Below the pieces are notes generated by a model. The model saw only the letters and a list, made by a program, of their open reading frames with translations. It did no database searches and had not been told where the DNA came from. This document shows, piece after piece, positions 1,950-60,588 of a stretch of DNA of 64,000 nt; within the stretch, counting starts at the first letter, position 1; every line of letters begins with the position of its first letter. The stretch comes from Candidatus Bathyarchaeia archaeon (GTDB lineage: Archaea > Thermoproteota > Bathyarchaeia > Bathyarchaeales > Bathycorpusculaceae), in NCBI GenBank assembly GCA_050010755.1, contig JBEKKK010000001.1, positions 896,001 to 960,000 of the forward strand, in the 5' to 3' direction. Position numbers and translations under genes: made by a program.

Positions 1950-2521
1950 AAACACATCAAAAGCGCGCGTCAAATGTTTCAGCAGAACTTCTAGATATTA
2001 GGGCAGCAAGCGTCGCATAGACGCGCGCGTGAATTAAATAATTGGGGAAAGTGTTGAATGAACTTTTTGAAACTGGGACGTGAAGTGGCAAGGAGTGCTT
2101 AACTTGGTCTGGTGGTGTTTACGGCAATCATCTTCTCGGCTCCTGTAGGCGTGTTGATGAGTCTGGAGGGTTTTAGCAGTTCTGAGCGCAGACTTGGACC
2201 GAAGCCGTTACTATGTCTTAACATCGTTAAACGGGTTAATCCTGAAATCATCCTGCAGGTTAGCAACTGTACAGTGAGTTTGTATGTTGTTATGAGTGAC
2301 TTTGGGGTCTGAACAGAGCCTGCTGGGAGCTTCATTCGCAAAACGCAGTCTCCGTTCAGCTTAGTTCTGAAAAACTTTTTCTGGCATCAAAACCCCGCGT
2401 CCAAATTCAACGCTTCTCTTCTCTGATTTTCTCAGTATCCTAAACAACGCGCTCTAATTATTTAACTAGCCTGCGCGACTGGCACTCTTGTCCAGTCAAA
2501 TGGGTGTGCTTGGTTTGGGTT

Positions 2522-3043
2522 CTAGGCGAGTAGACGTTTGTTCTTTAGCCACGTTTTTGCCAGTTCTTCGTAGTTTGGGAAGACGCGCTTAAGAATTGGG
2601 ATGTACATTTGCATTTCTTCTTCTGAAAGGTATTGGAATTGGAATTCTCCCATGTATGGGGAGGGTTCTCCTTCTCTGGTTACAAATTCTACGTGCATGA
2701 ACGGGTCTCCGCGTTTGATTGTGATGGGGCGGCGGTCGTTGCTGAGGTTTACAAGCTCCAGGGCGAGTCTTCCGATGAATCCGCTGTGAACTTTTGCGGC
2801 GTTCAGGAACGAGAGTCCCATTCTGCCGTACTTGCTTTTGGCGGTCAAGTGGGCTACGTTTGTGGGCAGCGTGAAGACGATTTCATGGGTGATGAGGTTC
2901 TTGTGTTCTAGGTAGTTGAGAGTTGTTTCCTCCCTCACCGTCAAGATGTACCCGTCTCCGTCGAGCAGGTTGTAATCGTATGGGTAAACGCACTTGTAAT
3001 TGTCAATAAGTTCTTTCAGCTTGTCTTTGCCTAGGACACTCAT
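2522..3043 (-). CDS. dcd: dCTP deaminase / trimeric dUTPase family protein
   Basis: AKSKYGRMGL and VHSGFIGRLALEL motifs, plus C-terminal PYMGEFQFQ. Confidence 0.7.
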   Translation of the reverse strand: MSVLGKDKLKELIDNYKCVYPYDYNLLDGDGYILTVREETTLNYLEHKNLITHEIVFTLPTNVAHLTAKSKYGRMGLSFLNAAKVHSGFIGRLALELVNLSNDRRPITIKRGDPFMHVEFVTREGEPSPYMGEFQFQYLSEEEMQMYIPILKRVFPNYEELAKTWLKNKRLLA

Positions 3044-3262
3044 GTACGGAAAACCTCGCTGTTTTCTAGCAGTACTAAACCTTTGAAGTTATATAGTTTT
3101 TTGCGCGGGGCTGAGAAGATAGTATTTCGCGGAACTGGATATTTTCTGTTAGTGCAAGATTCGATTCGCAGTCGCGCTGTCTCGGATGTTTTGGGGTGAG
3201 CTAGTATTTTATACGTTGAATACCACTTGCTTTTCATTCCTAAAAAGGGACAGAGTGATGAG

Positions 3263-3862
3263 ATGGGCTGCAAGCAATGTGTGAAAGACGCAGTTTATAG
3301 GTGCGGGGTTTGTGGCAAGCTGCTTTGTGCGGAGCATGCGGAGTTGACAACTGTGTGCGCTTCTCACTTGACGAAGTCGGAACTGGAGTTCGCGGTGCAC
3401 AAGATTGTAAGAGGAGAGGAAAGATCTGCTGTTCGAGAATTCGTGAGGAGGTTTTGGGGAGAGGAGGAACAGTTGACTTTTGACGGAAAATTCAGAGTTG
3501 CAGAACTGCCAGGCTTTGTTGCCAAAGCGCAAGAAAGGGTAATCGGGTTTATTTCATTTTCACCGACAAGCGATGCCCTCTTAGTTGTTGCTTTAGGCGT
3601 CCTGCCGAGATACCAATGCTGCGGAATCGGGAGAAGATTGATTAGGAAGGTTGAGGTTGAAGCGAGAAAGCTCGGAAAAATCAAAGTGCTTGTTTCAACT
3701 TCAAACGACGATTTGCCCGCTTTAGGCTTCTACCAGTCGCGTGGCTTCCAGATTTTCGAAGTAAAACCTAACGTCATCGCCGAGAAACATGCAAAGATCC
3801 TACGGGGAATAGGCGGACTGCCAGTGAGGGATGAGTTGAGGCTTCAGAAAATGCTCAATTAG
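3263..3862 (+). CDS. GNAT acetyltransferase with N-terminal zinc finger
   Basis: CKQC..CGVC..LCAEH..C..H is followed by GNAT motif A (QCCGIGRRL) and TSNDDLPALGFYQSRGF. ATG at 3263 chosen as start. Confidence 0.75.
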   Translation: MGCKQCVKDAVYRCGVCGKLLCAEHAELTTVCASHLTKSELEFAVHKIVRGEERSAVREFVRRFWGEEEQLTFDGKFRVAELPGFVAKAQERVIGFISFSPTSDALLVVALGVLPRYQCCGIGRRLIRKVEVEARKLGKIKVLVSTSNDDLPALGFYQSRGFQIFEVKPNVIAEKHAKILRGIGGLPVRDELRLQKMLN

Positions 3863-3935
3863 ACTGGCACTTCTTTGCAGGTTAAGAATTTTCATATCAA
3901 AAACGGGTGATTTTCTCCTTGACGCTTTTGTGTCT

Positions 3936-12066: not shown

Positions 12067-12212
12067 GCGGTCACCAACCCTGCGCTGTGACGCTCAATCC
12101 TTCTCCCTCTCTTCAACATCCATCCTTCTACACAACCTCACACGCGTGCAGGAACATACGCGCACATGGACTGGGATGTGAGAGGGTGAAGAAGGACAAA
12201 GCCAGCGCGCTA
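12067..12212 (+). ncRNA. candidate structured non-coding RNA (long interrupted hairpin)
   Basis: Nested complementary blocks GCGCTG/CAGCGC, TCCTTCT/AGAAGGA, CCCTCTC/GAGAGGG and ACATCC/GGATGT. A TATA-like TTTAAA lies at about 12033. Confidence 0.4.
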
Positions 12213-12244: not shown

Positions 12245-15200
12245 TTATCCTTTTAGCCAGCCCTTGATTCCAAGTTCGCTGACCTTGAGGGTCAGTGGCT
12301 CAGGCTGGTGCGATTTGTAATTTCCGTTTTCGTCGAGATACAGTACCGTGGGTTTAAGTGAGAACTCGCCTTGAACTTTCGGCTTGAGTTTAAGCTTCAC
12401 TTCTTCGGTTTTCAAGGGGTCAAGTCGTTTTCCTTTCATGTTCAAATAGCTGTCTTCCACCCTGTAGACTTCGGGTTTTTCTGCCAGTTCGAAGCCTTTC
12501 GGGATGAGCTCGGTGATTTTCATCAACAGCGCAGGGCCTTTTCCTGCATTGACAAGCTCTATTTCCAAGTCCAAATTTTCACCCACGTTTAGCTGTTTTT
12601 GGCGGGAAATGATGTTTGCCTGTATGTTAGCGTTCTCAAACTTCTCAATACCCACAGCATTCTCATGACTCGGAGCAGGCGTACTGAACGCCGTCGTTGT
12701 AGAGACAATTGTAGGAGTGTGTAACACCTCACTGAGGGACATAGCCAGCTCTTGTTCTTCTTTCACTTTGTCAAGGAGTCTCAGAACCTGTTCTCTCTTT
12801 TCTGGGTGTTCAGCTTTCATGAAAGAGCCCGCGGAAGTTTGCAGGATTTTTTGGGCCATTGCAAACAGTTTTGTTTTTCTTTCAGGGTCAGCTTCTTTCT
12901 TTGCGTTGTTGATGTTTGAGTAGGCGTCTAGAAGCAGTTCGGTTGCTTTGGCGTATTCCGAAGCGCTCTGAATGCCAGCTTTCACGTAGTATCTTGCGGC
13001 GCTTTCCAATTGCTGAATGGCGATGTTGTGGAGTTTTTCGTCCGCCGTGTCGGAAAATTCCATTCCAGCTTCAAGTGCTCTGCAGAAGCGACTGTGCCCC
13101 AGTGCTAGCGTCTTTGCTTTCTCGTTGGGGCTAAGCTCTTTGGCCTTCTCAAATAGCTGAGATGCTTCCGCGTATAAACCTGGCGATTCCTCGGCTTCAG
13201 CCTTGGTCATTTTTGCCCAAGCTTGAGAGAGAGTTGCGATAAGTTTGAACTCCTTCTTGTCCTGCTCTGTTTCTACAGCTTCCTGTATGCCTTCGAGGAT
13301 TTCAGCTGCTGAACTGTACTTCTCGGAGCTTGAAAAGTGATCTCCCTTCTTGTCAAAGATTTTGGCTTCTTCAACTGCGACTCGTGCTATGCAGTATTTA
13401 TGTCTCAGGTCGGTAGCCTTCAACATTTCTTCTGCCATCTCTTTTTCATCGGCGTCCTCGATCGTTGGCAACTGGTTTTCCAGAGACTTTCTGGTTTCCT
13501 CTAGAAGTGTGGAAGCTGTCTCAAAGGCTTGAAGAGCTTCTTCACTGTTCTCTTTCCTGCTCAGTTCTTCTGCTTTGTCAAGCTTTGCCCATGCTGAATA
13601 GTTAGGTGCGAGATAGTTCCATCGTTTCAATGATTTGTGAAGACCTGCGGCTTTGTCAAAATGCTCTTCTGCCATTTTATATTCTTGTTTCTGATGATGA
13701 AATCTTGCTTTTTCAATTTCGCTCCAAGCTTGCATGTACAGCGCATGGTCGCCGTAGAAGCCTTTGAGCTGTGGGAACTTCTCTAATGCCGAAGCGTAGC
13801 TCCGTGATGCACACTCAAAATCCTGAGCGGCTGCCAAATGGTCTCCAAGCTTGTCATATACTTGTGCTCTTCTCCAACAATTCTCCGCTATTCTACTCAC
13901 CAAGCTGAGCTTTTGATAGGATTCGGTTGAAGCGTCATAACTCTGTACCGCTTTTTTCAGATGCTCCTTCTCGCCCGTTAATTCGTACAAACGAACAAGC
14001 GCGCGTGCATATCCATGTTGCAGTGCTCCCACGGTTACGAAGAGAGAGGTCCCCGAGCCTTTCTTAATCATGTACGTCAATTCTCTGATGCACAACTCGA
14101 TTGCTTTCTGCTTGTCGGCCACTGCAGCCACGAGCAAAGCCTTCTTTTTCTCCGAGTCCTCGGTCACTTCAGCAAGTTCATATTCAACGTTTCCCAACGA
14201 ACTTCGCATGACACCAATATTCCAGTATTGAAAAGGGACAAGGCACTCTTGAATTCCCTTGGCTTTATTTATGTAAACGAGGGCTTCTTCAAGACCTTTT
14301 TTTCTTTCCACAAGCTCTGCTTCGAATTTGGTGAGCCTGTGGCAAAGCCAGCCTCCCCCACCATACCAAGCCATCATGATTTCCGGATAACCAGATTCTT
14401 CCCACACCTTTCGATTGCGCAGACCCCACTGGAAAGCCTCTTCAAGTAAGGCTCTTTTTTTCTTCGGATCAGTCTCAACGTCAACTTGAAAATAGAGACG
14501 GCTCTGTTCAATTCCTGCTCTAGTCCAGGCAAGATCGCCGCGGGGGCTTACGAAAGGCACCTTGCTGAACTCGCACAGTGATTCCTCTGCATATTTTAGA
14601 CACCTTTCAATGGCGCGCTCTTTCTCAGCTGGATCATCGGTTCCCTCAAGCTTCCATGCAGTGTGGTAGACGAGCCAATCTAATGCGCAACCGATAATGA
14701 ACTTGTCATTCATCTTTTTGCCGTATTCTAACGCTTTCGTACAGTTTTCAAACGCTTGATCGGAGCCTTCCAAGCCGAAGAAAACTTGGCCTCCAAAAAC
14801 GGGATACACAGACTCGGTCATCGCTATTTGTTCAGAAAGCTGTTTGGCTTTGCCCCAATAGTTGAGGCCTTCCAGTCGATACTTCTCCCTTTCATTAATG
14901 TCTCTGAAGTTGTAGCTGAAAACTCCTAGAAAAACGACGGTTCGGGCGTAGGCCATCGCAAGTTGGCAAGCATCCCCAGAGGTTGAGAGGAATTCTATTG
15001 CCATCTCGCCCGACTTCACTGCCTCTTGTATTACCTCTTCGCGGGATTTGAAATCGGGTTCACGGGTAAATAGAAAAATCGCTGCGTCTGAAAGTTGGAG
15101 GTATGTCTTCACAAATTCACTTCGTTCCTCTATCTTTTCGAATGCTCGCATACTCCCAGTTGCGAGCTTCCAGCATTCATCCAACCATTTCTTCTTTTCA

Positions 15201-47854: not shown

Positions 47855-47895
47855 AGACGCCTTATATTGAGGGCGTGCTGTGCCAAGAGAAGGAA

Positions 47896-48075
47896 TCAAG
47901 AGCCCCGCACTTCCTTTTTCCTCGTCTCCCAGTATTCTTTTGCTTCCCCATACTCCTTTTCTTTTTCGTCTGCTCCCGATTTTCCCCTACATTCTGGGCA
48001 TAGGCACTTGCCCGCGTATTGCACATACCGGGTGTAGAACATCTTCCCGCAATTCTCGCATCGGTGATCGCCCAT
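47896..48075 (-). CDS. zinc-finger microprotein
   Basis: MGDHRCENCGKMFY......KCLCPECR, with GGAGG SD. Confidence 0.6.
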   Translation of the reverse strand: MGDHRCENCGKMFYTRYVQYAGKCLCPECRGKSGADEKEKEYGEAKEYWETRKKEVRGS

Positions 48076-48174
48076 GATTTCGCCCTCCGCATAATAGTTA
48101 TCTTCCAAGCAAGGATTTAACAAGTTCTACATTAGTCAGCCTCAAAGAAATCGGCTAGTTAGCGTGCGCGCTTA

Positions 48175-48243
48175 CTACTCTTCAGCGTCTTCTTCCTCTT
48201 CGAAGTCTTCATCTTCGTCAGACTCTTCCTCCTCTTCAAACAT
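48175..48243 (-). CDS. polyacidic micropeptide (22 aa)
   Basis: MFEEEEESDEDEDFEEEEDAEE**, with GGCGGTGA SD and TATA-like TTTAAG upstream. Confidence 0.45.
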   Translation of the reverse strand: MFEEEEESDEDEDFEEEEDAEE

Positions 48244-48493
48244 CGTTTGGACTCACCGCCTTCGTCCTCAAAATTCAATTCCTCTTCTTTGGGTCTTAAA
48301 TAATTAGCGCGTACAGTTTTTCATTGAACAGTTCAGAAACAGAGTCTTCGAGTCAGTCTGCAGCGTTCATCCTTAGAGAAGACCGGACAAGATAAAAAAC
48401 TTGAAGTACGCTGGAATAAAGAGCATAAATATCACTCGTGCTTGAAGCGAAAGAAAGCCGAAAAAGGGTCTTTCGCGGAAACAGCTCTTATCC

Positions 48494-48733
48494 TCAGAAA
48501 ATTGCGTGTTGGTGGGGGGAAACGCAAATTCGAAGCGTGGAGTTTATGTTGAAAGGCCAATCGTAATTCATGGCTTCGTCCGTGTGTTCCTTGTCATTGG
48601 CAACCCATGTTGGTATGGATTCTTCAACGGCTTTCGATAGGTCGCATGTTATGCCGCCGAATCTTTCGATGGCGTTGAATCTGAGCTTCTTTTCAAGCTC
48701 ATCTGGAGGAGGCTCCACGCAAATTCGCCCCAT
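48494..48733 (-). CDS. ribbon-helix-helix protein, copy 2 (diverged, extended)
   Basis: MGRICVEPPPDELEKKLRFNAIERFGG; the upstream ~200 nt are also homologous to 44080-44277. Confidence 0.6.
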   Translation of the reverse strand: MGRICVEPPPDELEKKLRFNAIERFGGITCDLSKAVEESIPTWVANDKEHTDEAMNYDWPFNINSTLRICVSPHQHAIF

Positions 48734-49288
48734 TTGAATTACCAACTTTTTTGTATGACTTCAAAAGATGTGCACGATTCGCACGTGTCAGATCTTCTTC
48801 CAATAAGCAAATTGCCAAATACCAAGCATCGTTCCTATTTCTCTTATCATTGTACATCAATCCTATTTACTTATCCTCATAGTATATTATACGCATACGC
48901 GCTTATAAGGATATCGGCTTAATTGCTTAAGTGTGTAAGTCATCATCATAGCGCGCGTGCTTTAATCGATGGATGGAGAAGAATAGGTCGCAAGACAGAT
49001 ACCATCTACGCGAAGAAAGTATAACAATCACCAAGCCGACATGGAGATTTCCACCACCCTTTTTTATTTAACAGAAGCGCGGGCTAATAGGCGTTGAAGG
49101 TCTGTTTCTGTTCTAACCGGTGCCAGCCGCGGTTCTGATTCGTGAAGCCGAGGTTAGCTTGATTAGCGCGCGTGTAACTCGTTACTTGGGAACGTTTTAT
49201 CTCCTCGGATGGTGGTTGGGTTGGGGTAAAATCTTTGCGCGCGGTAAAGCCATTAGTAACAGTTTGCAATTGGTGGCTTGACCAATAA

Positions 49289-49450
49289 ATGATAATTGGA
49301 TGGTTGCTTATCATCGTAGGAATCTTATTCGCAATTTCTGGCATCGGTGAAACTGCAAGAATTCGAACACGTGGGAGAGGGGATTTCGTTTTTGCCTTGG
49401 CAGGTGCGGCTGGAATTTTGTTGATAGTCGTGGGTGCAATATTAGTTTAA
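49289..49450 (+). CDS. 2-TM microprotein (53 aa)
   Basis: Manually read MIIGWLLIIVGILFAISGIGETARIRTRGRGDFVFALAGAAGILLIVVGAILV*. Confidence 0.55.
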   Translation: MIIGWLLIIVGILFAISGIGETARIRTRGRGDFVFALAGAAGILLIVVGAILV

Positions 49451-49581
49451 GTGCCTGTTCCTTAGTGAAACTCAGAGAATCATACGACAGAAATCTTGAT
49501 CGGCACGGCAACACAAGACAAACTAGAGGTTCAAGAAGACTTATAGTCAAAGCCAAACGAAAGGAATAATGAGTCAAGAAT

Positions 49582-49800
49582 ATGGAAGGAAGAAAGAAAG
49601 TATTGATAATTTTCGGAATGATTCTTTTTATAATAGGCGTGGTCGTTTCATTCTATCCGACGGTCGCTCCATATAAAAGTGTAGGCATAGTTCTGGCTTT
49701 GGCTGGAAGCGTGTGTGTGGTATTGGGGTTACTTTACTCGCGCGCGCTACAGAAGATACGACCATCGCGTACTAACCCACAGCAACCTAGTTCAACTTAG
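49582..49800 (+). CDS. 2-TM small membrane protein
   Basis: Two hydrophobic helices. Confidence 0.55.
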   Translation: MEGRKKVLIIFGMILFIIGVVVSFYPTVAPYKSVGIVLALAGSVCVVLGLLYSRALQKIRPSRTNPQQPSST

Positions 49801-49955
49801 ACCATTTTTCAAGAAGACAGAAATCTTTAATCTGTACGGCAAGAGAAGACAAACTGGGGATTCAAAATGAGTTGGAAAGCGCGTGCGCTTTTTCTTGATG
49901 TTGTCTGTTGACGTTCTGTGAAGTCTGCTGTTGGCTGTGCTCTTCTGCGGGGTTG

Positions 49956-50219
49956 TTACCTTTGGGTTGATGAATCACTTCTCATACGCGCATGAGGCTC
50001 AGAGGTTTCTCGCTCTAACAAAGCCCAGAATATGATGTCTCTTTCTGAGTTGACAGTTCCGCTATGTCTTACTGTCCATCCATCTCCAGCGTACTTGTTA
50101 AGAGCCTCAGTCCAATCACCTGCTTCTTCTTCTCCGTATGCGCCACCCTTACCACGCGCGCGCTGTCCAGTAAGGCGAGAGAAATCATAGGACATGTAAA
50201 TTACTTTGTATTGCAGCAT
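49956..50219 (-). CDS. DUF4177-like small protein
   Basis: QYKVI...LNKYAGDGW......LER pattern. Confidence 0.55.
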   Translation of the reverse strand: MLQYKVIYMSYDFSRLTGQRARGKGGAYGEEEAGDWTEALNKYAGDGWTVRHSGTVNSERDIIFWALLERETSEPHARMRSDSSTQR

Positions 50220-51082
50220 AACCTATGATTACCTCTAGTCGTATTTAATGCTTGACGAACTCTGGTTATGCGTAGCGTGCGCGGGAGCAGCGGTGGGTTA
50301 CCCCTACCGAAAAAGACGATGAGTAAGACGGGCAGGCCCCAAAAGGCTATACTAGTTTAACCCGTTAGGGGTCTTTTATTTTAAAAAAATTACTCCTCGT
50401 GCTAATACGTGGTGTTTGGGGTAAAAAGGTTAAGGAAGTGCCTGTGCAATACGGATGAGTATTGACTCTACTTGGGTGCACAATCCTTATGATAGCTTTT
50501 CTTTGCAAAGAACCCTTTCGTCACTTCTTGTCCTGCAGGAATTTCGTTTCCACATTTCGCGCATTTGACCATACTGAACTCCTCACAGCATATCAGAAGT
50601 CTGCATATTTACGCTTATCGCAAATCCTTCAATTTCAAGGACACGGTTCAACGGGTAGGAGTTTGGGGGCGAAGTTTTTTCAATGTTCTTTTTGTGAGAA
50701 ATTGCCACAATTGCCTATAGCGCAGTCCGTCTTTGGGTGGCGAGCTTTAACTCAACGGTTTCTCATAGACTTAGCTGGTGAAAGTCGAAATTATAATGGC
50801 GTCTATGATGATATCACGTCAGTATGAAGGGATTTAAGTTCGGTTCTTTTTTCCCAGGATGATTTGACATTAAATCGATTCTGAGGCACCACAACACCAT
50901 CTTCTAAAGCAGGCTCACAATGAGCTTGCAGAGCAACTGAAGAAAAGCTGTAACGTGGAGACATGAAGTTGTCATTGTGAAAGGTAGCTCTCAAGACCGA
51001 TACAGAGACCTTAGGACGGGTCGTTTCGTTAGGAAGCCTTAGAAAAAGCGCGCTGGGAGGGGGTTAGAATTCAATGCTTTAC

Positions 51083-51493
51083 TTACTCGTTTCTTTTCTG
51101 CTCCTTCCACTTTGCGTATTCTTCCCGCAATTGACGGTCCATAGCAGGGTCTGCATTCACATTTATTTGAAAGATTGTTTGCCCTGTCAAGTTCTTAACG
51201 TGCCTCAACCACATTTCAAAATCCAAAGTGCCTTTCTTTCTTTCCCTGTCCATATCCTTTTGATAGTCATTTTCCTGCGGCGCGGGCTTGGTTTCAATAA
51301 TGACTAGGTCTTTCCTTGGGTCAACAATTATTATAGCCTCAGTCATCGTGCGGAAAAGCTCTGATGTCTCCTCGTCCGATAAGTGAACTTTTGCCGTGTC
51401 AAGAATCTTCTGTAAAGTGTTATTCAAGTCTTTCATGAGGTTTGGATTGCTCTTCAGAGTCTTCAAAACGACCTCAACATTCTTAGAAACCAT
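51083..51493 (-). CDS. hypothetical protein
   Basis: 136-aa ORF with protein-like composition. Confidence 0.55.
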   Translation of the reverse strand: MVSKNVEVVLKTLKSNPNLMKDLNNTLQKILDTAKVHLSDEETSELFRTMTEAIIIVDPRKDLVIIETKPAPQENDYQKDMDRERKKGTLDFEMWLRHVKNLTGQTIFQINVNADPAMDRQLREEYAKWKEQKRNE

Positions 51494-51627
51494 GCTTCAA
51501 ATCCTACGGGTCGACTCCTGCCATCTACATTCTGGTCCACTAGCTATTTAATTCTTGCTGGCTTGACAAAACGATCAGAAATTCCAATCTGGTTAATGGT
51601 GGTTAAACAAAATCTCCCCCACACACA

Positions 51628-51860
51628 AAGCGCGCGCTTCATGCTAACTACAAAAGTCCTTGAACAAACTTCTAAATTCAAGATAACCCATAAGCTGACT
51701 ATCCGTTCTAACCGTAGACATGAACGATTCTAGGAGAAAGCTTCTCTCCTTTACAGTTCGATTTCAAACTTCTGAAATGTTTGAGGCATTGTTGAAGAAA
51801 CCAGGCAATCAAACCCTTTTTACGTGACTGTATGGTGCATTAACGTCTAGCGTGCACGGG
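51628..51860. repeat. about 220-bp dispersed repeat, copy 2
   Basis: Aligns with 38391-38613 and supplies the last codons and stop of the DinB gene. Confidence 0.85.
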
Positions 51861-52319
51861 GTATCCTATGAGTGGTGGTTCAATACCCATTTGCCAGAAT
51901 AGAGCTATCAGCTCGCCTTGATGATGAACTTCCTCTTCGAAAACATGAACCAAAATGTCCTCGGCAGTCAGCGTTTCGGGTTTGCCATTTCTAGTGTCAT
52001 GATATTTCTTCTTTAGGCCTTCAGGAGACAGCGTTTCAAGGTAGTCGTGCATACGTTTTTCCACTTGTTTCATGTAGGTCTCCATTTCTTTCAGGTTCTT
52101 GTATTCCTCGAATTTCTTCTTTGAACGTTGGTTTTCATTTTGGAGGAAATCTAGCCAGTAGTCTGTTGCGTTTAGTGTGTGGATGAAGATGTTTCTAATC
52201 GAGTGGAAACTGGCTTCTCTATTCTTAATGAATTCACGCCACGACAGTTTGGCGAATGCCCCGAAGAAAGCGTGTCTCTCATTATCATTATATGCAAGAA
52301 GTTCTCTTACGTCAACCAT
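51840..52319 (-). CDS. DinB/YfiT family protein
   Basis: SIRNIFIH....W and H...E.HHQGEL motifs. Confidence 0.85.
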   Translation of the reverse strand: MVDVRELLAYNDNERHAFFGAFAKLSWREFIKNREASFHSIRNIFIHTLNATDYWLDFLQNENQRSKKKFEEYKNLKEMETYMKQVEKRMHDYLETLSPEGLKKKYHDTRNGKPETLTAEDILVHVFEEEVHHQGELIALFWQMGIEPPLIGYPVHARR

Positions 52320-52631
52320 TACAAGCGCCTATTGTATGATAATCTTCGTTCGGCTATAACTTTTCCGTAAAACCAAAAACTTGCCTAAAGGACTGATAGA
52401 GATTACTTCTAGTGATAAGCTAGTCAAACTGGGCACTTGCTGAATATGTGAGAAACGAAAAATAAACATGGATTCCTGGAATAGTCAATTTAGGTTAGCG
52501 CGCGCTATTTTTACAGTAGCTTGCTTCAAGCGATTTGAAAATGAGGGTAGCGGGCGGGTTTAAACCAAAGTGGCGTTGACAGAATATAAGCAAAGGTTTA
52601 GGCTTGTCTTTGAGGGCGCGTTTAACCACAC

Positions 52632-52772
52632 TCATTCATGAATGCCGATGAAACTTCCTGGGATGAAAACTGCTTTGCATTTTGGGCAAGTACATTTGCC
52701 GTCTGGGTTTTTGGTCATTTGCGTGCCACACTGAGGACATTTCGGGCATCGTGGGCTAGACTTGTCAGACGT
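52632..52772 (-). CDS. zinc-ribbon microprotein (46 aa) with ACG at the expected start
   Basis: GGAGGTGA-taaa-ACG, then SDKSSPRCPKCPQCGTQMTKNPDGKCTCPKCKAVF...*. Confidence 0.5.
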   Translation of the reverse strand, partial: TSDKSSPRCPKCPQCGTQMTKNPDGKCTCPKCKAVFIPGSFIGIHE

Positions 52773-53050
52773 TTTATCACCTCCAGTGCCCCAATGGTTG
52801 TCCCTTACGGTTTCGTAATTTGTTGTATTTAAGGTTGGGCACTCGCGCGCGCTCTGTCTCCGTCTGTGTGTGTTTTTTTGTTTGTGTCAAGGTGTAGAAA
52901 GTAAGAGAGATATCTAATAGTCTGTAGAAGCAGTAGTAGAAGAAGAAAAAGGGTAAAGTTTTATCCCATACACACTTTTTGACAAGATTCTTCTTCGTTA
53001 GAGGAATAATTATATGTGTGAAAAAGAAGTTTTTTCCGAGGAGTTAAGCT

Positions 53051-53503
53051 GTGTTGCATTTGGATCATGTGAGACTGTTGGTTGTCGATTTTGGGGCCTG
53101 CTTTCGCTTCTACAGAGACGCCATGGGCTTGAGGGTAACGTGGGGAGAAGAAAAGGATGCATACGCAAGTTACGTTTCAGAAGGAGGAGCCCAACTTTCT
53201 CTCTTTAAGAGAGAAGTTCAAGCAAAAGCCTTGGGCACGTCCAACCTTCCTGAGAGTGCAGTTGTCCAGGACAGAATGGCTTTGATATTTGCCGTGGATG
53301 ACCTTGACACTACCGTCAAGAGATTGAAAGAAAGGAATATTGGATTCATTACTGAGCCTCAAGAACGTCCAGATTGGGGTATACGAGTGGTTTACCTGAG
53401 AGACCCTGATGGAAACCTTATCGAAATCAACAGTCCGATATCTACTAAGAATTGGACGAAAGAACTTCAGGAAGAGTCAGAGAAATACACGACGAAAAAG
53501 TGA
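53051..53503 (+). CDS. VOC/glyoxalase family protein
   Basis: HVRLLV.D....RFY...G and PDWG....LRDPDGNLIEI motifs. Confidence 0.9.
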   Translation: MLHLDHVRLLVVDFGACFRFYRDAMGLRVTWGEEKDAYASYVSEGGAQLSLFKREVQAKALGTSNLPESAVVQDRMALIFAVDDLDTTVKRLKERNIGFITEPQERPDWGIRVVYLRDPDGNLIEINSPISTKNWTKELQEESEKYTTKK

Positions 53504-53867
53504 GGAGACGAAGCTTCTATTAAAACCTAGTGCGTTCTCAAAATCATGTTTGTGAAATGTACGTCTTAAGAAGAGCTTAAGGCATACATTTCTTAACGTT
53601 GAAACACACTTTTGTTCCTTCCTTCCTCAATCGTCCGTTCACGGTTTCCGTTGTCCGTCGTGGTCCTCGTTGGTTAAGGTCGTCGTCCGTTTGGTTGGTT
53701 GGGTAAAGTTTTATTGTGTGTGTGGGGATAAACTAGCGCGCGCGCTAACCGTTCAACGTGAAAAAATGTAGGGAAATGATAAATTCTCTAAGATCTTATG
53801 AGGAGTGGATTGTTTGAAAGGCTACTCTTTTCAATGATTAAGATAACCTGGACAAGAGGTTGAAAAA

Positions 53868-55055
53868 GTGAGTGAGTTGAAGATGCCTGAAAGGATCAAA
53901 TTCTTGGCTTTTGAAGCCAGAGAGATTGGTGGAATGAATGTCAAGAACAGGTTAGTTAGATCTGCTACATATGAGCATATGGCTTCTGAAGGTGGTAGCG
54001 TTACAGACGAACTCATAAACTTGTATAGGACTCTGGCTGAAGGTGGAGTTGGATTGATAATCACAGGTGCTGCTTATGTGCAACTTAGTGGTAAGTCTGT
54101 TCCTTGCCTGACGGGGATATACAGAGACGATCTGATTCCAGGATTGAGAAAAATCGCAGAAACAGTCCATGAACATGGCGATGGTTGCAAAGTTGCGATA
54201 CAGCTGCTTCATTGTGGTCGTCAGTCGTTTGTGTTAGAAAACACTGTAGCCCCTTCTGCCGTTTTTGAACCTGTGGTTAAAAAAATGCCACGAGAAATGA
54301 CGATTGAAGAAATAGAAGAGACAATAGAAGCTTTTGCAAAAGCAGCGAGGAGGGCAAAGGAGGCAGGGTTCGACGCCGTTCAACTCCACGCTGCCCATGG
54401 ATACCTCTTGAGTGAGTTCCTGTCCCCTTACACTAACAGAAGGACAGATGAATACGGGGGCAGCACAGGAAACAGGACCAAAATCGTTGAAGATATTTAC
54501 AAAAGGATCGTGGAAAATGTTGGAACGGATTTTCCCATTTTGATAAAGATTAACGTGGACGATTTTTTGGAAGGCGGAATAGACCTCAGCGAGTCCAAAA
54601 AGGTTGCAGAAAGGCTTTCAAAAACGGGGTTTGCAGCCATTGAAACCAGCGGGTGCATGTGGGAAGTCACGACACGTAGTAAAGAAGAACTTGGCTGGGT
54701 ACCGGCTATGTTACCTGAAAGCCGAATAAACATCAGGTGTAAAGATAAGGAAGCCTACTTTTTACCTTACGCCAGAGAAATCAGGAAAGTGATCGCTGCG
54801 CCATTAATTCTGGTCGGTGGAATCAGATCCCTTGACGTGATTGAAAACATACTGGCTGAAGGAAGCGTGGATTTCGTTGCCCTATGCCGACCCTTGATTC
54901 GACAACCAGACCTTCCGAATAAATGGCTAAAGGAAATTGGAGCATTAACCGCTGACTGCATTTCATGTAACGGCTGTGTTCGCAGCACAATGGTTGGCGG
55001 CATAAGGTGTATCCCAGAGGAAAAAAGAAATAGAATACGAATCGAAGTTTCTTGA
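53868..55055 (+). CDS. NADH:flavin oxidoreductase (Old Yellow Enzyme family)
   Basis: KNRLVRSAT, HAAHGYLLSEFLSP..NRRTDEYGGS..NR and C-terminal CISCNGC. Confidence 0.9.
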   Translation: MSELKMPERIKFLAFEAREIGGMNVKNRLVRSATYEHMASEGGSVTDELINLYRTLAEGGVGLIITGAAYVQLSGKSVPCLTGIYRDDLIPGLRKIAETVHEHGDGCKVAIQLLHCGRQSFVLENTVAPSAVFEPVVKKMPREMTIEEIEETIEAFAKAARRAKEAGFDAVQLHAAHGYLLSEFLSPYTNRRTDEYGGSTGNRTKIVEDIYKRIVENVGTDFPILIKINVDDFLEGGIDLSESKKVAERLSKTGFAAIETSGCMWEVTTRSKEELGWVPAMLPESRINIRCKDKEAYFLPYAREIRKVIAAPLILVGGIRSLDVIENILAEGSVDFVALCRPLIRQPDLPNKWLKEIGALTADCISCNGCVRSTMVGGIRCIPEEKRNRIRIEVS

Positions 55056-55247
55056 AAATCTTAACAGAGAATGGCTCGAACTTTGCAGATGGAGAATTAG
55101 TGAAAAGAAATTCGTTGTTAGCATATAGATGCTTGAAAGCAACTGTAAACCCTTGTCCTGATATCTGTTCATTTCGGCTATAACTTTTCCCCCAAACCCA
55201 AAATAAGTCGAAAGAATGGAACAAAAAGACTAATAGTTGAAGAGGCT

Positions 55248-55704
55248 ATGTCATTTATTAGAAAAAGACAGGAGAATAATGTGAAAAGAAGCTATTTTCA
55301 TCTAATTGCTATCATAGGAATAATCTTAGGTGTGGCACTCTTAGAAGGCGGAATATACGCAAGCACTTACTCTACACGGTCTGGTTCGCCTCCTGCTATG
55401 GTCAGGCTCGTTTACCCTTATGCCGTATATTCGAGTGTCCTATTTGGTGCAGGGGCTGTCTCGATATTCGTAGGAATAGTCGCTGTCTCGCTTGCCCCCC
55501 CAGAGGAAACAAGCGGTCATAAGAGTTCTGATATTTCTTGCCTTCCTCTTCGCTGAAACTGTGGCAGCATTTCTCACAGTTCATAATGGATTCAATTATC
55601 TTGGATTTCTTGCTATTACTCTAATAATTCTGGTGCTCTGCATTTATTCAGTACTCAACTATCCAACAAAGTTAAAAACCAAAAATACCCTTAGCGCGCG
55701 CTGA
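55248..55704 (+). pseudogene. 4-TM membrane protein split by a frameshift in a C7 tract
   Basis: ORFs 55248..55556 and 55492..55704 fuse as ..VSLAPQRKQAVIRVLIF if the C7 run at 55495-55501 is C6. Confidence 0.55.
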
Positions 55705-55839
55705 GTGTGTGAGTGTAAGTAAGTGAGCGACTGAAGGAGCAAGTAATTGAATGAGTGATTATGTGGTTAAGAACGTATGAGAGAATTTGGGTTTGGGTTT
55801 GGGCTATAACTTTTCCGCAAAACCAAAAACTGTTTCTGT

Positions 55840-56373
55840 TCATGCAGTCTTTGTTAGTATTTTTGGTTCTTTCCATTCTTCTCTGAGGATGCTGTATAAG
55901 GTTATGTCTGTCCATTCTCCTCGAATAAAGCTACGTTTCCGCATTATGCCCTCTCTTCTGAAGCCTATTTTTTCTAGGGCTCTCTGTGACGGGTTCTTGA
56001 TATGAGTTGTTGCTTGAATACAGGGAGCCTCTTTGCTGAGAAACAGGTAGTCTATCATTATTTGTGTGGCTTCGGTGCCGTAGCCTTTTCTCCTCTCGTT
56101 TGGAATTAGGGAAGCGCCTATTTCCAACGTTTTGCCCATCGGGTGTAATACGTGGAAGTGAGTAATCAACCCAATCTTCGTTCCGTCTTTCTTCTCTATT
56201 ATGAAGTCCTTGAACTCGTAGGGACTAGGTTCTGACAATGCTTTTTCCATTTCTGCTTTAGACCTTTGACTCGGCAAGAAATATTCCGAATCCACATTGT
56301 TAGCCCATTTATGCCAGAACGACACGTCTTCCTTCTCCATAGCCCTCAGATTCACGGTCTTACCTTCAAGCAA
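55840..56373 (-). CDS. RimJ/RimL-type GNAT acetyltransferase
   Basis: RRKGYGTEA and N.SQRALEKIGF.REG..R motifs. Confidence 0.85.
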   Translation of the reverse strand: MLEGKTVNLRAMEKEDVSFWHKWANNVDSEYFLPSQRSKAEMEKALSEPSPYEFKDFIIEKKDGTKIGLITHFHVLHPMGKTLEIGASLIPNERRKGYGTEATQIMIDYLFLSKEAPCIQATTHIKNPSQRALEKIGFRREGIMRKRSFIRGEWTDITLYSILREEWKEPKILTKTA

Positions 56374-56743
56374 CTCGATTCACCAGCCCAGCTGTTGCTC
56401 TGGGGTCAGCTATAACTTTTCCCATTGACCGACCGCTACGCAGGCCACAACTCCCGATGGTCGGTCGGTAAAGTTTTATCCAATTCAAACTTGCGGCGTG
56501 GCTTGCTGTGGAAAAAGAGAGCTACTGCGGGTGCAGTATACTGGATTCAGAATACACGGCATTCCCATTGTAAAAAGAGCTATTGCTGGAAATCAGGTCG
56601 TAATAGGGTAGGGATGGGTAGTACCGGAATCGAGTATAGGCCCTATCTCTATGTTGCGGGATAGTTGTAGCTGAACCGAAAATCAGTTTAGAGCAGATAG
56701 TGGAGGAATTGTATTATTAAATAGGTGTTCGGCAAGAAGTTTC

Positions 56744-57832
56744 TTGAGTGAAGAGGGACGATCTTTGAGTGATACGGTTTATGAGCGTCTTGCTGATGCT
56801 TTGGATCGGCTACCGAACGGTTTTCCCAGAACACCTTCATATGTTGAGATTCGAATTCTGAAGAAGATATTCTCGCCCGAGGAGGCGAAGCTTGCGTGTC
56901 AGTTGAGCGGATGCTTGGAATCCATCGATGTCATAGGCAATAGGGCCGGTTTTTCCGCTAAGAAGACAGAAACAGGGTTAACGAAATTGGCTAAGCGTGG
57001 ACTCGTTTGGTACGATGATGAAAAGGGAAAACCGTTGTTCAGACTTGCGCCCTTCATAGTTGGCATTTACGAGGCTCAGTTGGAGAGCATGGATCACGAG
57101 TTAGCTCACCTCGTCGAAGATTATTTGATGAATGGGGGCGCGGTTGGCATCATGAAGCCTCAGCCAGCTCTGCACCGTGTTATCCCCGCACAAAAGGCAG
57201 TCAAATCGGAGTTGATACTTCCGTATGACGATGTCAAGGTGATACTTCTGAACTCCAAATCGTTCGGCCTACGCGAGTGCATCTGCAGAGTACAACGGAA
57301 GACGCTCGGCCACAAATGCGACTTTCCAGTCAAAACCTGCCTGTTCTTCTCAGAATACGAACGTCCTCCACACAGATACACAATCTCTCAACAAGAAGCC
57401 CTGGCCTTTCTCGATAAAGCCGAAGAAATAGGCCTAGTCCACACGGTCAGCAACGTCATGAGAGGTGTAGGGTACGTCTGCAACTGCTGCGGCTGCTGCT
57501 GCGGCATACTCAGAGGCATCAACGACTGGGGCATAGAAAATAGCGTCGCCCACGCTAACTACACCGCCACAATCGACCCAGACGCCTGCCTAAACTGCGG
57601 AACCTGCAGAACCAGATGCCAAGTACACGCCATAACCGAACAAAACGGCACATCCGTCGTTGACACAAAAAGATGCATCGGCTGCGGACTCTGCGCCACC
57701 GGCTGCCCAAACAACGCAGCCCAACTCAAACGCAAACCTCCAAGCCAAATCATCAACCCCCCAGAAAACTTCGCAGCATGGGAACACGAACGCCTTCACA
57801 ACCGAGGACTAACCAAACAACAAACAAAGTGA
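56744..57832 (+). CDS. 4Fe-4S binding protein with N-terminal helical/HTH region
   Basis: CICR, CNCCGCCC and two CxxCxxCxxxC ferredoxin motifs. Confidence 0.85.
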   Translation: MSEEGRSLSDTVYERLADALDRLPNGFPRTPSYVEIRILKKIFSPEEAKLACQLSGCLESIDVIGNRAGFSAKKTETGLTKLAKRGLVWYDDEKGKPLFRLAPFIVGIYEAQLESMDHELAHLVEDYLMNGGAVGIMKPQPALHRVIPAQKAVKSELILPYDDVKVILLNSKSFGLRECICRVQRKTLGHKCDFPVKTCLFFSEYERPPHRYTISQQEALAFLDKAEEIGLVHTVSNVMRGVGYVCNCCGCCCGILRGINDWGIENSVAHANYTATIDPDACLNCGTCRTRCQVHAITEQNGTSVVDTKRCIGCGLCATGCPNNAAQLKRKPPSQIINPPENFAAWEHERLHNRGLTKQQTK

Positions 57833-57941
57833 AGGCGACGTTTGGGTTTGGGATAAAACTTTACCCTTTTCTCTCTCATGCGTTTAAGATGCCGCGATAA
57901 AGCGCGCGCTATCGTTAGATGGGTGGAAGAACACATTAAAC

Positions 57942-59099
57942 TTATTGTGCTATATCAAAACGCATTACACTTAAAATAGCGCGCGCTTTTTTCGATGTCA
58001 ACACAACAACTATTGAAACGGCCAAGAACAACACTAGGATAAGTGCTGCACTGCTGAACTCCGGTATAGGGGATTCTGATATTACCGAGACCGTGCTGTC
58101 GCCAGCATTGGTCACGAATATCTCGCCCTTGCCAGAATCATAAGCTACGGCAAAGGGACCGTTTCCCACGGTCATGTTTGCAACCACAGTATTGTTGGTG
58201 TCCGATATAATCGAGACCGTGCCGTCAACAGTATTGGCCACGAAGATATCGCCCGTGCTGGAATCATAAGCTAATTCTTCTGGAGTGAGTCCCAAGGTTA
58301 TGTTTGCAACCACGGCATTGGTACTGTCCGATATGACCGAGACTGCGTTGACGCCAGCATTGGTCACGAATATCTCGCCCTTGCCAGAATCATAAGCTAC
58401 GCCGTAAGCTACGCCTCGGCCAGCGCCGTTTCCCAAGGTTATGTTTGCAACCACGGCATTGGTGCTGTCCGATATAACTGAGACCGTGTCGGGATTCTGA
58501 TTGGCCACAAATATCTCGCCTTTGCCGGAATCATAAGCTATGCCTTCGGGCTCGGTGTACCCTGTTCCCAAAATTATGGTTGCAACCACAGTATTATTAC
58601 TGTCCGATATGACCGAGACCGTGGGAGGGTTGTCGTCCTGATTTGTTACGAATATCTCGCCTTTGCCGGAATCATAAGCTATGCCATTGGGACTGGCTCC
58701 CACGGTTATGTTTGCAACCACAGCGTTAGTAGTATCCGAGATAGCCTGGACCGTCTTGACGCCGTAAAAATTGGATACGAATATCTCGCCTTTTCCAGAA
58801 TCATAAGCTATAGCGCGGGGAGTGGGTCCTGTGGTTATGTTTGCAACCACGGCATTAGTGCTGTCCGATATAACTGAGACCGTGCTTGGAGCATAATTGG
58901 CGCCCTCATTGGTTACGAATATTTCGCCTTTTCCAGAATCATAAGCTATGCCATAATCATAGGGAGGAGAGGCGGTGGGGTTACCCACTGGTATCGTGGC
59001 AATTACTCCAATTGCATAGACCGAATGGGCAATTGACAAGGCAAAAATCGCAATGAATATTAGACCCAAAAGCTTCCAAACTTTGACTTTCATATGCAT
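57942..59099 (-). CDS. YncE/YVTN 7-bladed beta-propeller surface protein with PEF-CTERM
   Basis: Seven AYDS(G/S)(K/T)G(E/D)IFV repeats, signal peptide, IPEF + TM + KK. Confidence 0.9.
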   Translation of the reverse strand: MHMKVKVWKLLGLIFIAIFALSIAHSVYAIGVIATIPVGNPTASPPYDYGIAYDSGKGEIFVTNEGANYAPSTVSVISDSTNAVVANITTGPTPRAIAYDSGKGEIFVSNFYGVKTVQAISDTTNAVVANITVGASPNGIAYDSGKGEIFVTNQDDNPPTVSVISDSNNTVVATIILGTGYTEPEGIAYDSGKGEIFVANQNPDTVSVISDSTNAVVANITLGNGAGRGVAYGVAYDSGKGEIFVTNAGVNAVSVISDSTNAVVANITLGLTPEELAYDSSTGDIFVANTVDGTVSIISDTNNTVVANMTVGNGPFAVAYDSGKGEIFVTNAGDSTVSVISESPIPEFSSAALILVLFLAVSIVVVLTSKKARAILSVMRFDIAQ

Positions 59100-59300
59100 T
59101 CCCCAACCTTTCCATCTAAAGCGCGAAAGTCGAATCTTCTTCTTGTCTTAAAAGGATTACTCATCAAAGTTTCTGGATGAGACATCATCGCTTGACACAT
59201 GGAAAGCATGGCGAGGTTCCCGTCCGAGGCGAACTTGACAAACGTTTCCGACGCTTTTTTGGGCTTGGTCATTTTCATTCTCACTTGAATCAGCCATACG

Positions 59301-60272
59301 TTGCTAATCAATTTCTATTTTGCCGTGCAGGCAAACAGCGCGCGCTTAGTATTTATGGGAGTCGTGGTCTTCCAGAGGTTGAGGATCATGATGACAGGCT
59401 TGGTCTTCTATTTGGTCGACGTGTTTGCTGAAGAAAAATACGCTGGAAATCAGCTTGCGGTGGTCAGGAATGCCGGTGCACTCTCTAGCGCTCAGATGCA
59501 GAGGATCGCAAACGAGATGCACTTTTCTGAAACGACCTTCATACTTTCAGATGAGAAGCGAGATGGTGGATACGATGTTCGCATCTTCACGCCGGCAAGG
59601 GAGATGCCTTTCGCTGGACACCCGACATTAGGCACTGCTTACGTGATAAGACGCTGTTTAGTCAACGAAAACATCGACAAGGTAGTTCTTAACCTGGAAG
59701 TGGGGCAGATCCCCGTTACCTTCGAAAGAGAAGAGGACCAAGAGGTGCTGTGGATGAAACAGATTCAGCCGGTCTTCGGTGAGACCTTTGATGCCGCGGA
59801 CATCGCGCAGATGTTGAACCTTGACCTCGAAGAGATAGACAACAACTATCCTGTTCAGGAAGTGTCCACGGGCGTTCCCTTCGTCATAGTTCCCCTGAAA
59901 ACTCTCCAAGGGGTAAAACGTGTCAGAATAGACAAAGACAAACACCTTGAACTGGTAAAAGAAACACAGGCAGAAACTCTTGTTTTCTCCCCTGAAACTT
60001 ACAACAAAGAAAACAATCTGAACGCACGAGTCTTCGTGGACTTGCACGGGATTCCCGAGGATCCGGCTGCCGGCTCGGCCAACGGCTGTTTGGCAGCTTA
60101 CCTTTCCCGGTACCGCTATTTTGGCGATGGCTCAGTCAGTGCCAGAGTGGAGCAGGGCTACGAAATAGGCAGGCCCTCTTTACTGCGTATCAAAGCGGAA
60201 AAGAGAGAAGGACAAATACTTGTTCACGTAGGAGGAAAGGTAGTGATGGTTGCCAACGGAGAACTCACATGA
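59301..60272 (+). CDS. PhzF family epimerase/isomerase
   Basis: VDVF....GN, SETTF, RIFTP..E.PFAGHPT and EDPAAGSANG motifs. Likely start about 59388. Confidence 0.9.
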   Translation: MLINFYFAVQANSARLVFMGVVVFQRLRIMMTGLVFYLVDVFAEEKYAGNQLAVVRNAGALSSAQMQRIANEMHFSETTFILSDEKRDGGYDVRIFTPAREMPFAGHPTLGTAYVIRRCLVNENIDKVVLNLEVGQIPVTFEREEDQEVLWMKQIQPVFGETFDAADIAQMLNLDLEEIDNNYPVQEVSTGVPFVIVPLKTLQGVKRVRIDKDKHLELVKETQAETLVFSPETYNKENNLNARVFVDLHGIPEDPAAGSANGCLAAYLSRYRYFGDGSVSARVEQGYEIGRPSLLRIKAEKREGQILVHVGGKVVMVANGELT

Positions 60273-60588
60273 TAACCCGCGCTGAGGATAACCTGTCACA
60301 AGAACCGCGACAGCATGTCTGCATATATTTTGAACCGCAACTCGAGGGCAAAGCATTCTTCGAGAAGTGTGCGCCCTCCATTGGAAACACAACCTAGAAG
60401 GTATTCGAGCGCGCCTTCGCACTTCACGCTGGGACTTATTGTTGCTGCGATCTTTGTGTTCACCCTAAGTCTTTCACAAGAAGTAAAGACCTCAAATCGT
60501 TAGCGCGCGCTTACCATTGCAGACTCGCTTTCTTAGAAAAACTTTTCTAATGCGCGCGATTCGCTTGCGATTAAACACTAAAGATAAG

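Follow-up and report, generated by a model that had tools for sequence, protein, structure and literature searches.

The DNA analysed here is a 64,000-nucleotide stretch of a Bathyarchaeia genome (the window; G000:C1:896001-960000, G000 being the source genome and C1 its contig 1), in which a short alternating G/C palindrome recurs at the edges of genes. We conclude that the motif, whose core is GCGCGCGC and whose preferred length is 8 bp, is an extragenic palindrome, highly iterated and specific to certain lineages, that lies between transcription units. The G000 assembly (2.19 Mb, 8 contigs, 47.7% G+C, 93% complete) represents DNA also contained in peat and wetland metagenome runs. It was compared with the other four genomes of its genus (G001-G004; genus total n = 5), with 26 other relatives and with a class-wide set of 121 genomes. 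Gene calls in G000 were crude, taken as the longest open reading frames (ORFs) scored by codon use, and gave 1970 genes and 81% coding DNA.

The window holds a variable island (37000..61000) with genes for GT4, rubrerythrin-like, Hsp20-like, DinB, glyoxalase, OYE, GNAT, Fer4, NHL and PhzF proteins and with small Zn-ribbon and RHH-like ORFs. The island is made of single-gene units, which in G001-G004 are scattered, reordered and inverted. A sequence-only reading had counted about 45 GC tracts, mostly intergenic and densest at 37-61 kb. After merging there are exactly 45 tracts of (GC)3-5. Of these, 14 fall between 1 and 37 kb and 31 between 37 and 61 kb, the last part of the window (61-64 kb) having none; nine lie well inside crude gene calls. 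The window contains 64 copies of GCGCGC, where 100 dinucleotide shuffles gave 11.47 ± 3.51 (largest shuffle 19), and 17 of WAGCGCGCGCTW with at most one mismatch, where 0.46 are expected.

Outside the island, (GC)3 tracts lie within called genes at 1693..1698 (gene 603-1949), 13999..14004, 14613..14618 and 32964..32969 (a P-type ATPase gene). Intergenic copies are found at 20325..20332 ((GC)4, with A4/T4 flanks), 24281..24286 ((GC)3) and 29532..29539 ((GC)4). The (GC)3 tracts at 1963..1968, 14 nt past the stop of gene 603-1949, and at 12205..12210, 35 nt past the stop of gene 12245-15622 (minus strand), have a motif at the same place in relatives (G002 and G004 for the former, G003 for the latter); both genes are conserved and lie outside islands. 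Further copies coincide with limits of homology. The (GC)4 tract at 27583..27590 marks the 3' edge of gene 27545-29398 (minus strand), where homology to G002/G004 begins. At the other end, a (GC)3 tract at 29413..29418, kept in G002 and G004, has the TATA-like box and the start of the same gene on either side, and this homology stops at 29445..29450, a (GC)3 copy found in the window only. The (GC)4 tract at 30878..30885, 11 nt past the stop of gene 30897-31298 (minus strand), stands where a 3.1-kb block syntenic with G002-G004 begins.

The dense zone begins with an intergenic (GC)3 tract at 37749..37754, followed at 38680..38685 by a (GC)3 tract forming the left edge of an Alba-paralogue unit, with homology blocks beginning at 38686-38696. 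Several stop codons had been placed inside the motif. This holds at 41457, where the (GC)3 tract 41457..41462 overlaps the TAG stop of gene 40744-41457, at 42545, where a degenerate copy (42545-42552) overlaps the stop of gene 42198-42545 and a (GC)4 tract follows 50 nt after the gene (42596..42603), and at 51840; position 45349 belongs to a 12-nt alternating tract. A (GC)3 tract lies within called gene 42736-43554 (43148..43153), a (GC)4 tract between small units (44620..44627), and a (GC)3 tract plus ACGC 20 nt past the stop of the Hsp20-like gene 46453-46971 (46991..46996), where homology blocks stop. Gene-poor stretches carry copies at 46205..46210 and 49166..49171 ((GC)3) and at 49740..49747 and 50156..50163 ((GC)4). 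The remaining (GC)3 tracts of this part adjoin a homology block beginning at 48174 (48166..48171), the edges of an inverted duplicate (48592-48939) and of a block at 48961-49065 (48951..48956), a weak metagenome-contig joint at 49235 (49237..49242) and a block that stops at 51047 (51048..51053).

From 52 kb onwards, copies lie upstream of the DinB-like gene on the minus strand (52498..52505, (GC)4 in a full TA..TA palindrome), upstream of the glyoxalase-like gene (52845..52852, (GC)4), between the glyoxalase-like and OYE-like genes (53736..53745, (GC)5 in a full TA..TA palindrome) and between the OYE-side ORFs and the GNAT gene (55694..55701, (GC)4). Two (GC)4 copies separate convergent genes (57902..57909 and 57979..57986), the second in the last codons of the NHL-repeat gene (minus strand). 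A (GC)4 tract at 59338..59345 stands where the homology of the PhzF-like unit to G002/G004 begins (59342); the tracts at 60409..60414 ((GC)3) and 60503..60510 ((GC)4) are intergenic, and the last copy, a (GC)3 tract at 60552..60557, lies 30 nt from the end of gene 60589-62424 (minus strand). The sites previously quoted at 20321, 41455, 46989, 52496 and 53734 are as described. Of five quoted as a 14-mer with (GC)5, only that at 53734 stands, those at 55692, 57901, 57977 and 60501 being (GC)4 with other flanks. Units had also been described as lying between two copies, with the pairs 48161/48305 and 52615/52843 as examples; in these, 48305 and 52615 are weak matches, GCGCG only.

Genome-wide, G000 contains 668 tracts (435 (GC)3, 213 (GC)4 and 20 (GC)5). 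Its commonest 10-mer is GCGCGCGCTA, with 129 occurrences, and GCGCGCGC is its most over-represented intergenic 8-mer (z ~80). Splitting the count by context, as the earlier reading had proposed, gave 203 copies of GCGCGCGC in spacers against 4.2 expected from dinucleotides, and 37 in coding DNA against 22.9. Coding GCGCGC was likewise close to expectation (268 against 223 ± 10 after synonymous-codon shuffling). These near-expected coding counts make a genome-wide mutation or repair bias unlikely. Among the 233 tracts of at least (GC)4, 194 are intergenic, 35 coding and four at contig edges.

Alternating G/C runs in spacers number 178, 99, 135, 55, 16 and 1 at lengths of 6, 7, 8, 9, 10 and 11 nt, peaking at 8 and then breaking off sharply. 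In G000 spacers the other dinucleotide repeats show hardly any enrichment. The octamer prefers the GC phase (203) over the CG phase (94), and tracts prefer A at -1 and T at +1 (275 of 668 each), with nothing else beyond the core. Since the lengths peak at 8 bp and stop sharply and other dinucleotide repeats are hardly enriched, the motif, with its phase and flank features, looks like a recognised site and not like a microsatellite or a generic Z-DNA tract. What stands on one flank is independent of the other (TA..TA seen 12 times, 13.8 expected). Around the 668 tracts, flanking positions are complementary at chance level only: no extended palindrome and no hairpin beyond a 2-4 bp stem was found there, and no GTAG tag. 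The scan of 37 kb of arrays for attC-like inverted repeats returned the motif alone, which, together with the flank test, bears out the earlier statement that attC hairpins are lacking.

A tract lies within -6 to +80 nt of the stop in 214 of the 1970 called genes. In tandem spacers, 27 of 109 tracts lie at most 25 nt from a stop and 4 of 109 at most 25 nt from the next start. A tract is present in 84 of 286 spacers between convergent genes, in 170 of 848 between tandem genes and in 68 of 356 between divergent genes. In the arrays (C1:1350.6-1363 kb; 52-60 kb of the window) a motif is followed, after a variable 6-30 nt, by a TATA-like box, then by a gene and then by another motif, and the next start comes 27-215 nt after the motif. 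A 15-kb locus (L145) of G080, a single-contig genome from another family (f35), shows the same placement: all eight of its tracts lie between long ORFs, and the hexamer occurs 19 times against 1.67 expected. One of its tracts, (GC)7 at L145:9264-9277, exceeds every G000 spacer tract and has a second, (GC)4 copy 40 nt away. Behind the same gene in different species the offset of the motif often differs and the downstream DNA is unrelated; the differing offsets suggest turnover. For 47 pairs of gene 3' ends (G000 against a relative; four redundant loci dropped), a motif within 80 nt of the stop was found in both members of nine pairs, in G000 only in three, in the relative only in seven and in neither in 28. 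Motif presence behind the same gene is correlated between species (odds ratio 12, Fisher p 0.001), which speaks for a boundary site.

The 10-mer TAGCGCGCGC is present in 48-231 copies in all five genomes of the genus, against 6-22 for the reversed control. Other relatives hold 0-3 copies in 24 of 26 genomes, the exceptions being G018 (56, control 27) and G013 (11, control 2). Class-wide it is abundant in family f35 (5/5 genomes, e.g. 337 against 17) and in family f26 (4/5, e.g. 203 against 14); elsewhere G065 has 21 against 0 and G094 45 against 7, and most others, including the majority of the genomes sampled from f1, f11, f17, f24 and f34, are near zero. In G080 the full 10-nt palindrome occurs 94 times against none for the control, spread around the genome. 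Recent DNA sharing with distant motif-rich genomes was rejected as the source of this distribution: their matches to window DNA reach only 65-85%. Viral contigs with two nearby motif copies (11 loci, mostly 55-69% G+C) proved unrelated. Full-text literature searches found no description of such a palindrome in Bathyarchaeia or of this motif in archaea.

The sequence-only reading had noticed the motif at the edges of duplicated pieces, and these pieces do begin and finish at motif copies. A ~220-nt piece present at 38392-38611 and 51630-51851 (91% identical) begins exactly at a motif, (GC)3 at 38392..38397 in the first copy and (GC)4 at 51630..51637 in the second, and finishes just behind one, a (GC)3 tract at 38604..38609 in the first copy. 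Two inverted duplicates in the window likewise finish beside motifs. We then compared G000 with itself by BLAST, using the 580 unique ends of high-scoring segment pairs (HSPs) of at least 100 nt and at least 80% identity and counting ends at most 4 nt from an alternating run. Such runs coincided with 46 of the 580 ends, against 5.5 ± 2.3 (maximum 16) when ends were displaced by 25-250 nt in 1000 trials. Among HSPs of at least 90% identity, 9 of 20 had an end at the motif (0.25 in the control), and 12 of 868 HSPs had both ends there (none in the control).

Comparison of 38-61 kb with G001-G004 returned short matching blocks on many contigs, in other orders and orientations. From 81 HSP rows of at least 80% identity, typed by hand and omitting weaker rows, rows cut by query ends and duplicates from the 44-46 kb overlap, we obtained 86 distinct breakpoints. 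A motif stands at most 10 nt from 17 of them, where random positions in spacers would give 8.4 ± 2.8, and the other 69 lie away from one; nine breakpoints are at a called stop and three at a called start. The association of motif and breakpoints is thus real but partial. Joints in metagenome contigs (four DNA runs, at least 90% likeness) fall at motifs at 42544 and 49235 and away from them at many other places (55797-55805), and nothing was concluded from these joints, whose sides are only 20-34 letters long and come from mixed populations.

In 328 junction windows, the motif was present in both copies in 19, in one copy in 46 and in neither in 263. At the one junction of the 46 that was inspected for microhomology, the 3' end of the GT4 gene ((GC)3 at 40446..40451), the G002/G001 sequence reads CGC and then the TAA stop; in the window CGC continues into the motif and the stop is replaced, leaving 3-4 nt of microhomology. 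In the relatives the non-coding 190-nt piece at 40485-40676 is part of a longer unit, of which both ends are missing in the window; each new joint bears a motif ((GC)4 at 40479..40486; (GC)3 at 40681..40686, upstream of the rubrerythrin-like gene) that the relatives lack. At 1990-2486 a multi-copy unit stands in place of an MFS-type gene of G002/G004, and its left joint is at GCGC ((GC)3 at 2023..2028, the left edge of the unit). No clean insertion of a motif into otherwise continuous DNA was seen in the junctions inspected, one flank always being replaced, and the 26 relatives' loci yielded no simple pair of filled and empty sites. Eight filled-versus-empty sites in G000 were rejected as motif cases: they belong to another repeat family. 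The junctions are unlike recombination between two full sites and fit one-sided breaks at the motif or microhomology joining.

Two repeat families were also observed. The multi-copy unit has five copies of 380-450 nt, ~84-88% identical (2021-2474; C1:317912-318367; C1:578433-578826, C1:1361838-1362200 and C7:6232-6690, the last three on the minus strand), with a motif and a TATA-like box at the start and a T-run at the end. It has no Rfam match, 3 of 111 predicted pairs covary, and it possibly represents an unrecognised small RNA gene or a unit with a small ORF. The second family (~35 copies by 12-mer counts) consists of one half that ends in poly-A plus a G-rich stretch and another that begins with CAACATGG, the halves standing 7-20 nt apart in some copies and 100-3095 nt in others. 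Copies lie at C1:195210-195370, C1:472986-473227, C1:822810-823066, C7:2568-2730, C3:126041-126311 and other places, including the left flanks of loci L019 and L020. In G002 and G004 the family also occurs at breaks of synteny, and its halves resemble a target or att-like pair enclosing inserts that vary.

To account for these observations we tentatively favour a boundary site of the kind of the repetitive extragenic palindromes (REPs) or the highly iterated palindrome HIP1, recognised by a DNA-binding factor and secondarily a hotspot for illegitimate recombination. The site follows one gene's stop and precedes the next gene's TATA-like box by a variable 5-30 nt; an abundant dimeric DNA-binding factor, which we infer, would bind it and punctuate gene units. 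Such a factor could hinder read-through, as a roadblock or insulator, or organise the nucleoid. Its binding site would secondarily become a hotspot of illegitimate recombination, by either of two routes: a tightly bound barrier could break replication forks one-sidedly, or the 8-mer, which is self-complementary, consists of G and C only and recurs at hundreds of gene edges, could offer the best microhomology in either orientation. By either route, single-gene units would be joined, duplicated, inverted and swapped at the motif. The earlier suggestion of a chromatin-protein or Z-DNA signal survives in its first half: a protein site fits the 8-bp length and the position between units, whereas Z-DNA fits the sharp length cut-off poorly. 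Protein roadblocks (yeast Reb1-type, Tus-Ter, the Fob1 replication fork barrier) offer a possible likeness, with a short, orientation-independent site lying between a unit's end and the promoter that follows. Such barriers are also recombination hotspots. Roadblock termination in an archaeon did not appear among the titles returned by the literature search.

The likeness to known iterated palindromes is incomplete. REPs, which RAYT mobilises, are also sites of protein binding and rearrangement. A REP study describes 20-40 bp stem-loops with a GTAG or CGTC tag and 5-13 bp stems (PMC3733652). Like our motif, REP, BIME and REPIN elements are reported in high copy number, in particular lineages and in extragenic DNA, chiefly downstream of coding regions and between genes that are unidirectional or convergent (PMC3733652). 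The motif differs in being a bare 8-10 bp palindrome with neither stem-loop nor GTAG tag, in an archaeal host, and in that Y1/RAYT transposase was not found in G000, G003 and five f35 genomes. HIP1 of cyanobacteria (GCGATCGC) is described as a hyper-abundant 8-bp G+C-rich palindrome kept between genomes, with a proposed role in chromosome structure or recombination (PMC5861425, PMC4390886). Like our motif it is many-fold over-represented; unlike it, HIP1 lies within as well as between ORFs and goes with two methyltransferases, whereas the motif is near expectation in coding DNA and the genus has no PF00145 match over cut-off. The comparison with HIP1 made in the sequence-only reading is therefore apt as a description (top 10-mer, top intergenic 8-mer, lineage-specific) and fails on the almost purely intergenic placement and the C5 methylase.

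Several points weigh against a boundary site. No binding protein for the motif was identified, and none of the sequencing runs listed as containing this DNA is an RNA run. Tracts occur in 324 of 1490 spacers, about a fifth, so the motif cannot be the general boundary signal of G000. No T-run was seen behind it (T4 or longer within 15 nt downstream in 31 of 214 cases, upstream in 21 of 214). The gene calls, based on longest ORF and codon score, are crude. The correlation of motif presence between species comes from 47 non-independent pairs at loci chosen in and around islands. The patchy spread across families is the pattern of a transferable enzyme or element and favours the rival explanations. 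Bacteria have highly iterated short palindromes too, REP, HIP1 and uptake sequences among them, whose functions are still debated. The present motif is unusually clean, at 8 bp, almost purely intergenic, and present in some lineages of a class and absent in sisters, a pattern from which phyletic profiling could trace the responsible factor. Were it bound by a factor, the motif would be a candidate for a boundary or insulator element in archaea; were it cut by an enzyme, it would mark a new gene-capture route in a globally abundant, uncultured archaeal group.

The second possibility, a dedicated cassette system without attC, we consider unlikely. Here the 8-bp palindrome would be the core site or duplicated target of a recombinase or integrase moving promoter-plus-gene units. 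Several Bathyarchaeia lineages would then hold cassettes with GCGCGCGC as the joint where an unrecognised enzyme cuts and joins, so that units are captured, duplicated, inverted and shuffled in defence and accessory islands, and capture may also take place at secondary sites with only GC microhomology. Unit orientation would be free because the core is palindromic. If true, Archaea would possess gene-shuffling machinery of a new kind, acting at short sites. It would explain the gene-motif-gene-motif arrays in islands, the units common to G001-G004 in other orders and orientations, the duplicated pieces with a motif at both ends, a cassette-like cargo (GNAT, glyoxalase, DinB, small RHH-like ORFs, TIR-domain genes), the tyrosine integrase at the edge of the densest array and, as a transferable enzyme, the patchy lineages. 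Integron arrays share with the motif arrays single, mostly promoter-carrying accessory genes split by a repeated site, a variable content and similar cargo. Integron attC sites are imperfect inverted repeats of 55-140 nt, with a hairpin at each cassette end; the motif arrays have an 8-bp site, no attC hairpins and no IntI beside the array of the window, and their junctions are mostly one-sided (46 against 19), the one inspected being microhomologous inside a coding end. Most cross-genome breakpoints, moreover, lie away from the motif, which also follows conserved genes outside islands and is spread fairly evenly in G080.

The search for an enzyme points the same way. The earlier reading had proposed looking for a co-distributed recombinase or methylase, and none was found among the families searched. 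Resolvase, TnpB and Ku have no matches in G000. Tyrosine recombinase PF00589 has three, none of them in the window. One is the integrase bordering the densest array (C1:1348651-1350134; L024:17651-19134), whose first ~45 codons overlap the 3' end of the RNase P RNA gene, a stretch conserved across the family even without integrase. This integrase (C1:1348836) was rejected as the motif enzyme: its overlap with the RNA gene is as in an ordinary integrative element, and the distribution of its homologues does not follow that of the motif. No viral relatives of it were found. The one-sided junctions, the microhomology, the few cross-genome hits and the lack of a recombinase therefore leave a dedicated site-specific system undemonstrated. 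Of the capture-and-shuffle system first proposed, the tie to breakpoints and to shuffled single-gene units stands; against it are the motif-bearing junction windows, of which 46 of 65 have the motif in one partner, and the 17 of 86 cross-genome breakpoints. The observation behind that proposal is confirmed and its interpretation partly supported. The island that follows the integrase holds two TIR-domain (CAP12/Pycsar-type) genes and a lactonase-like gene.

A selfish mini-element, akin to REP/REPIN sequences or to the GC clusters of yeast mitochondria and inserted in trans into spacers, is a doubtful explanation. Position at gene boundaries would then reflect where insertions are harmless. Confinement to spacers, patchy lineages with very different copy numbers, differing offsets behind the same gene across species and variation of tract length at orthologous sites are all as such an element would predict. 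Yeast mitochondrial GC clusters (treated in PMC4478555) are short G+C-rich palindromes in A+T-richer spacers. They are tens of bp long, mobile and tied to recombination and rearrangement. The clusters are longer than our motif and form sequence classes with target duplications, neither of which the motif has: the TA..TA count shows no target duplication, and there is no stem-loop. Nor was there a clean insertion alignment. The Y1/RAYT transposase (PF01797) has no matches in G000 and G003, and in G001, G002 and G004 lies mostly at contig ends, so that copies may have been lost in assembly; class-wide it is found in 0/5 genomes of f35, in 3/5 of f26 and in several motif-poor genomes. Not found in G000 and G003 and not tracking the motif across the class, it was rejected as a partner.

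It is improbable that the motif acts through non-B DNA, an alternating G-C tract that flips to Z-DNA or extrudes under negative supercoiling and so serves as supercoil sink and fragile site. The purine-pyrimidine alternation, its location between transcription units and its association with breakpoints are in keeping with such a structure. Alternation is also preserved in variants, as the sequence-only reading had observed, but such variants are simply transitions, and (CA/TG)n tracts are only mildly enriched in G000 spacers. Stable Z-DNA needs tracts longer than 8-11 bp, whereas lengths in G000 peak at 8 bp and stop at 10-11. The preference for the GC phase and for A before and T after the tract points to sequence recognition instead.

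A signal at the RNA level (an intrinsic terminator, a processing site or an mRNA-stabilising 3' hairpin) is very unlikely: the motif lies nearer to stops than to starts in tandem spacers and is most frequent in convergent ones, but it has neither a T-run nor a hairpin beyond a 2-4 bp stem, and it is also present in 68 of 356 divergent spacers. Maintenance as a HIP1-type site, through an orphan cytosine methyltransferase or biased repair, is highly improbable: the motif is a hyper-abundant, lineage-specific 8-bp palindrome differing from HIP1 in the two central bases only, and HIP1 is reported to be tied to methyltransferases (PMC4390886, PMC5861425), but C5 methylase PF00145 is over cut-off in 0/5 genus genomes (a lone G002 match is below it), the sole clear N4/N6 methylase gene of G000 stands beside an MvaI/BcnI-type nuclease itself present in 3/121 genomes, and the lack of enrichment in coding DNA argues against a genome-wide repair bias.

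The nuclease gene (MvaI/BcnI family, 62628-63398, plus strand) adjoins this methylase gene (PF01555), which runs from 63408 past the window end (C1:959408-960373, minus strand) and whose match has an internal TAA. With only 3/121 class genomes containing it, the nuclease is unrelated to the motif and was rejected as a partner. Next to the pair are tRNA-Arg (62509-62583) and the gene of a 611-aa DUF4365 protein (60589-62424). The motif-dense first 20 kb of contig 1 include a type I restriction-modification operon that is complete, with R, M and S genes (C1:1904-7082, L027). Alba paralogues were also rejected as partner: 2-7 copies are present everywhere, so there is no co-distribution with the motif. 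Alba-family matches number four in G000 (38837-39124 in the window and three other places) and up to seven in G003 and G004; some of them sit in variable islands, each with a conserved promoter block of its own.

Two further repeats occur in the window. The NHL-repeat gene (57942-59099, minus strand) contains internal tandem repeats at 58084-58956 (126-141 nt, 5-7 copies, 64-90% identical). A 300-nt direct duplicate (16330-16629 and 24453-24752, 89% identical) spans the starts of two 189-aa ORFs 8 kb apart.

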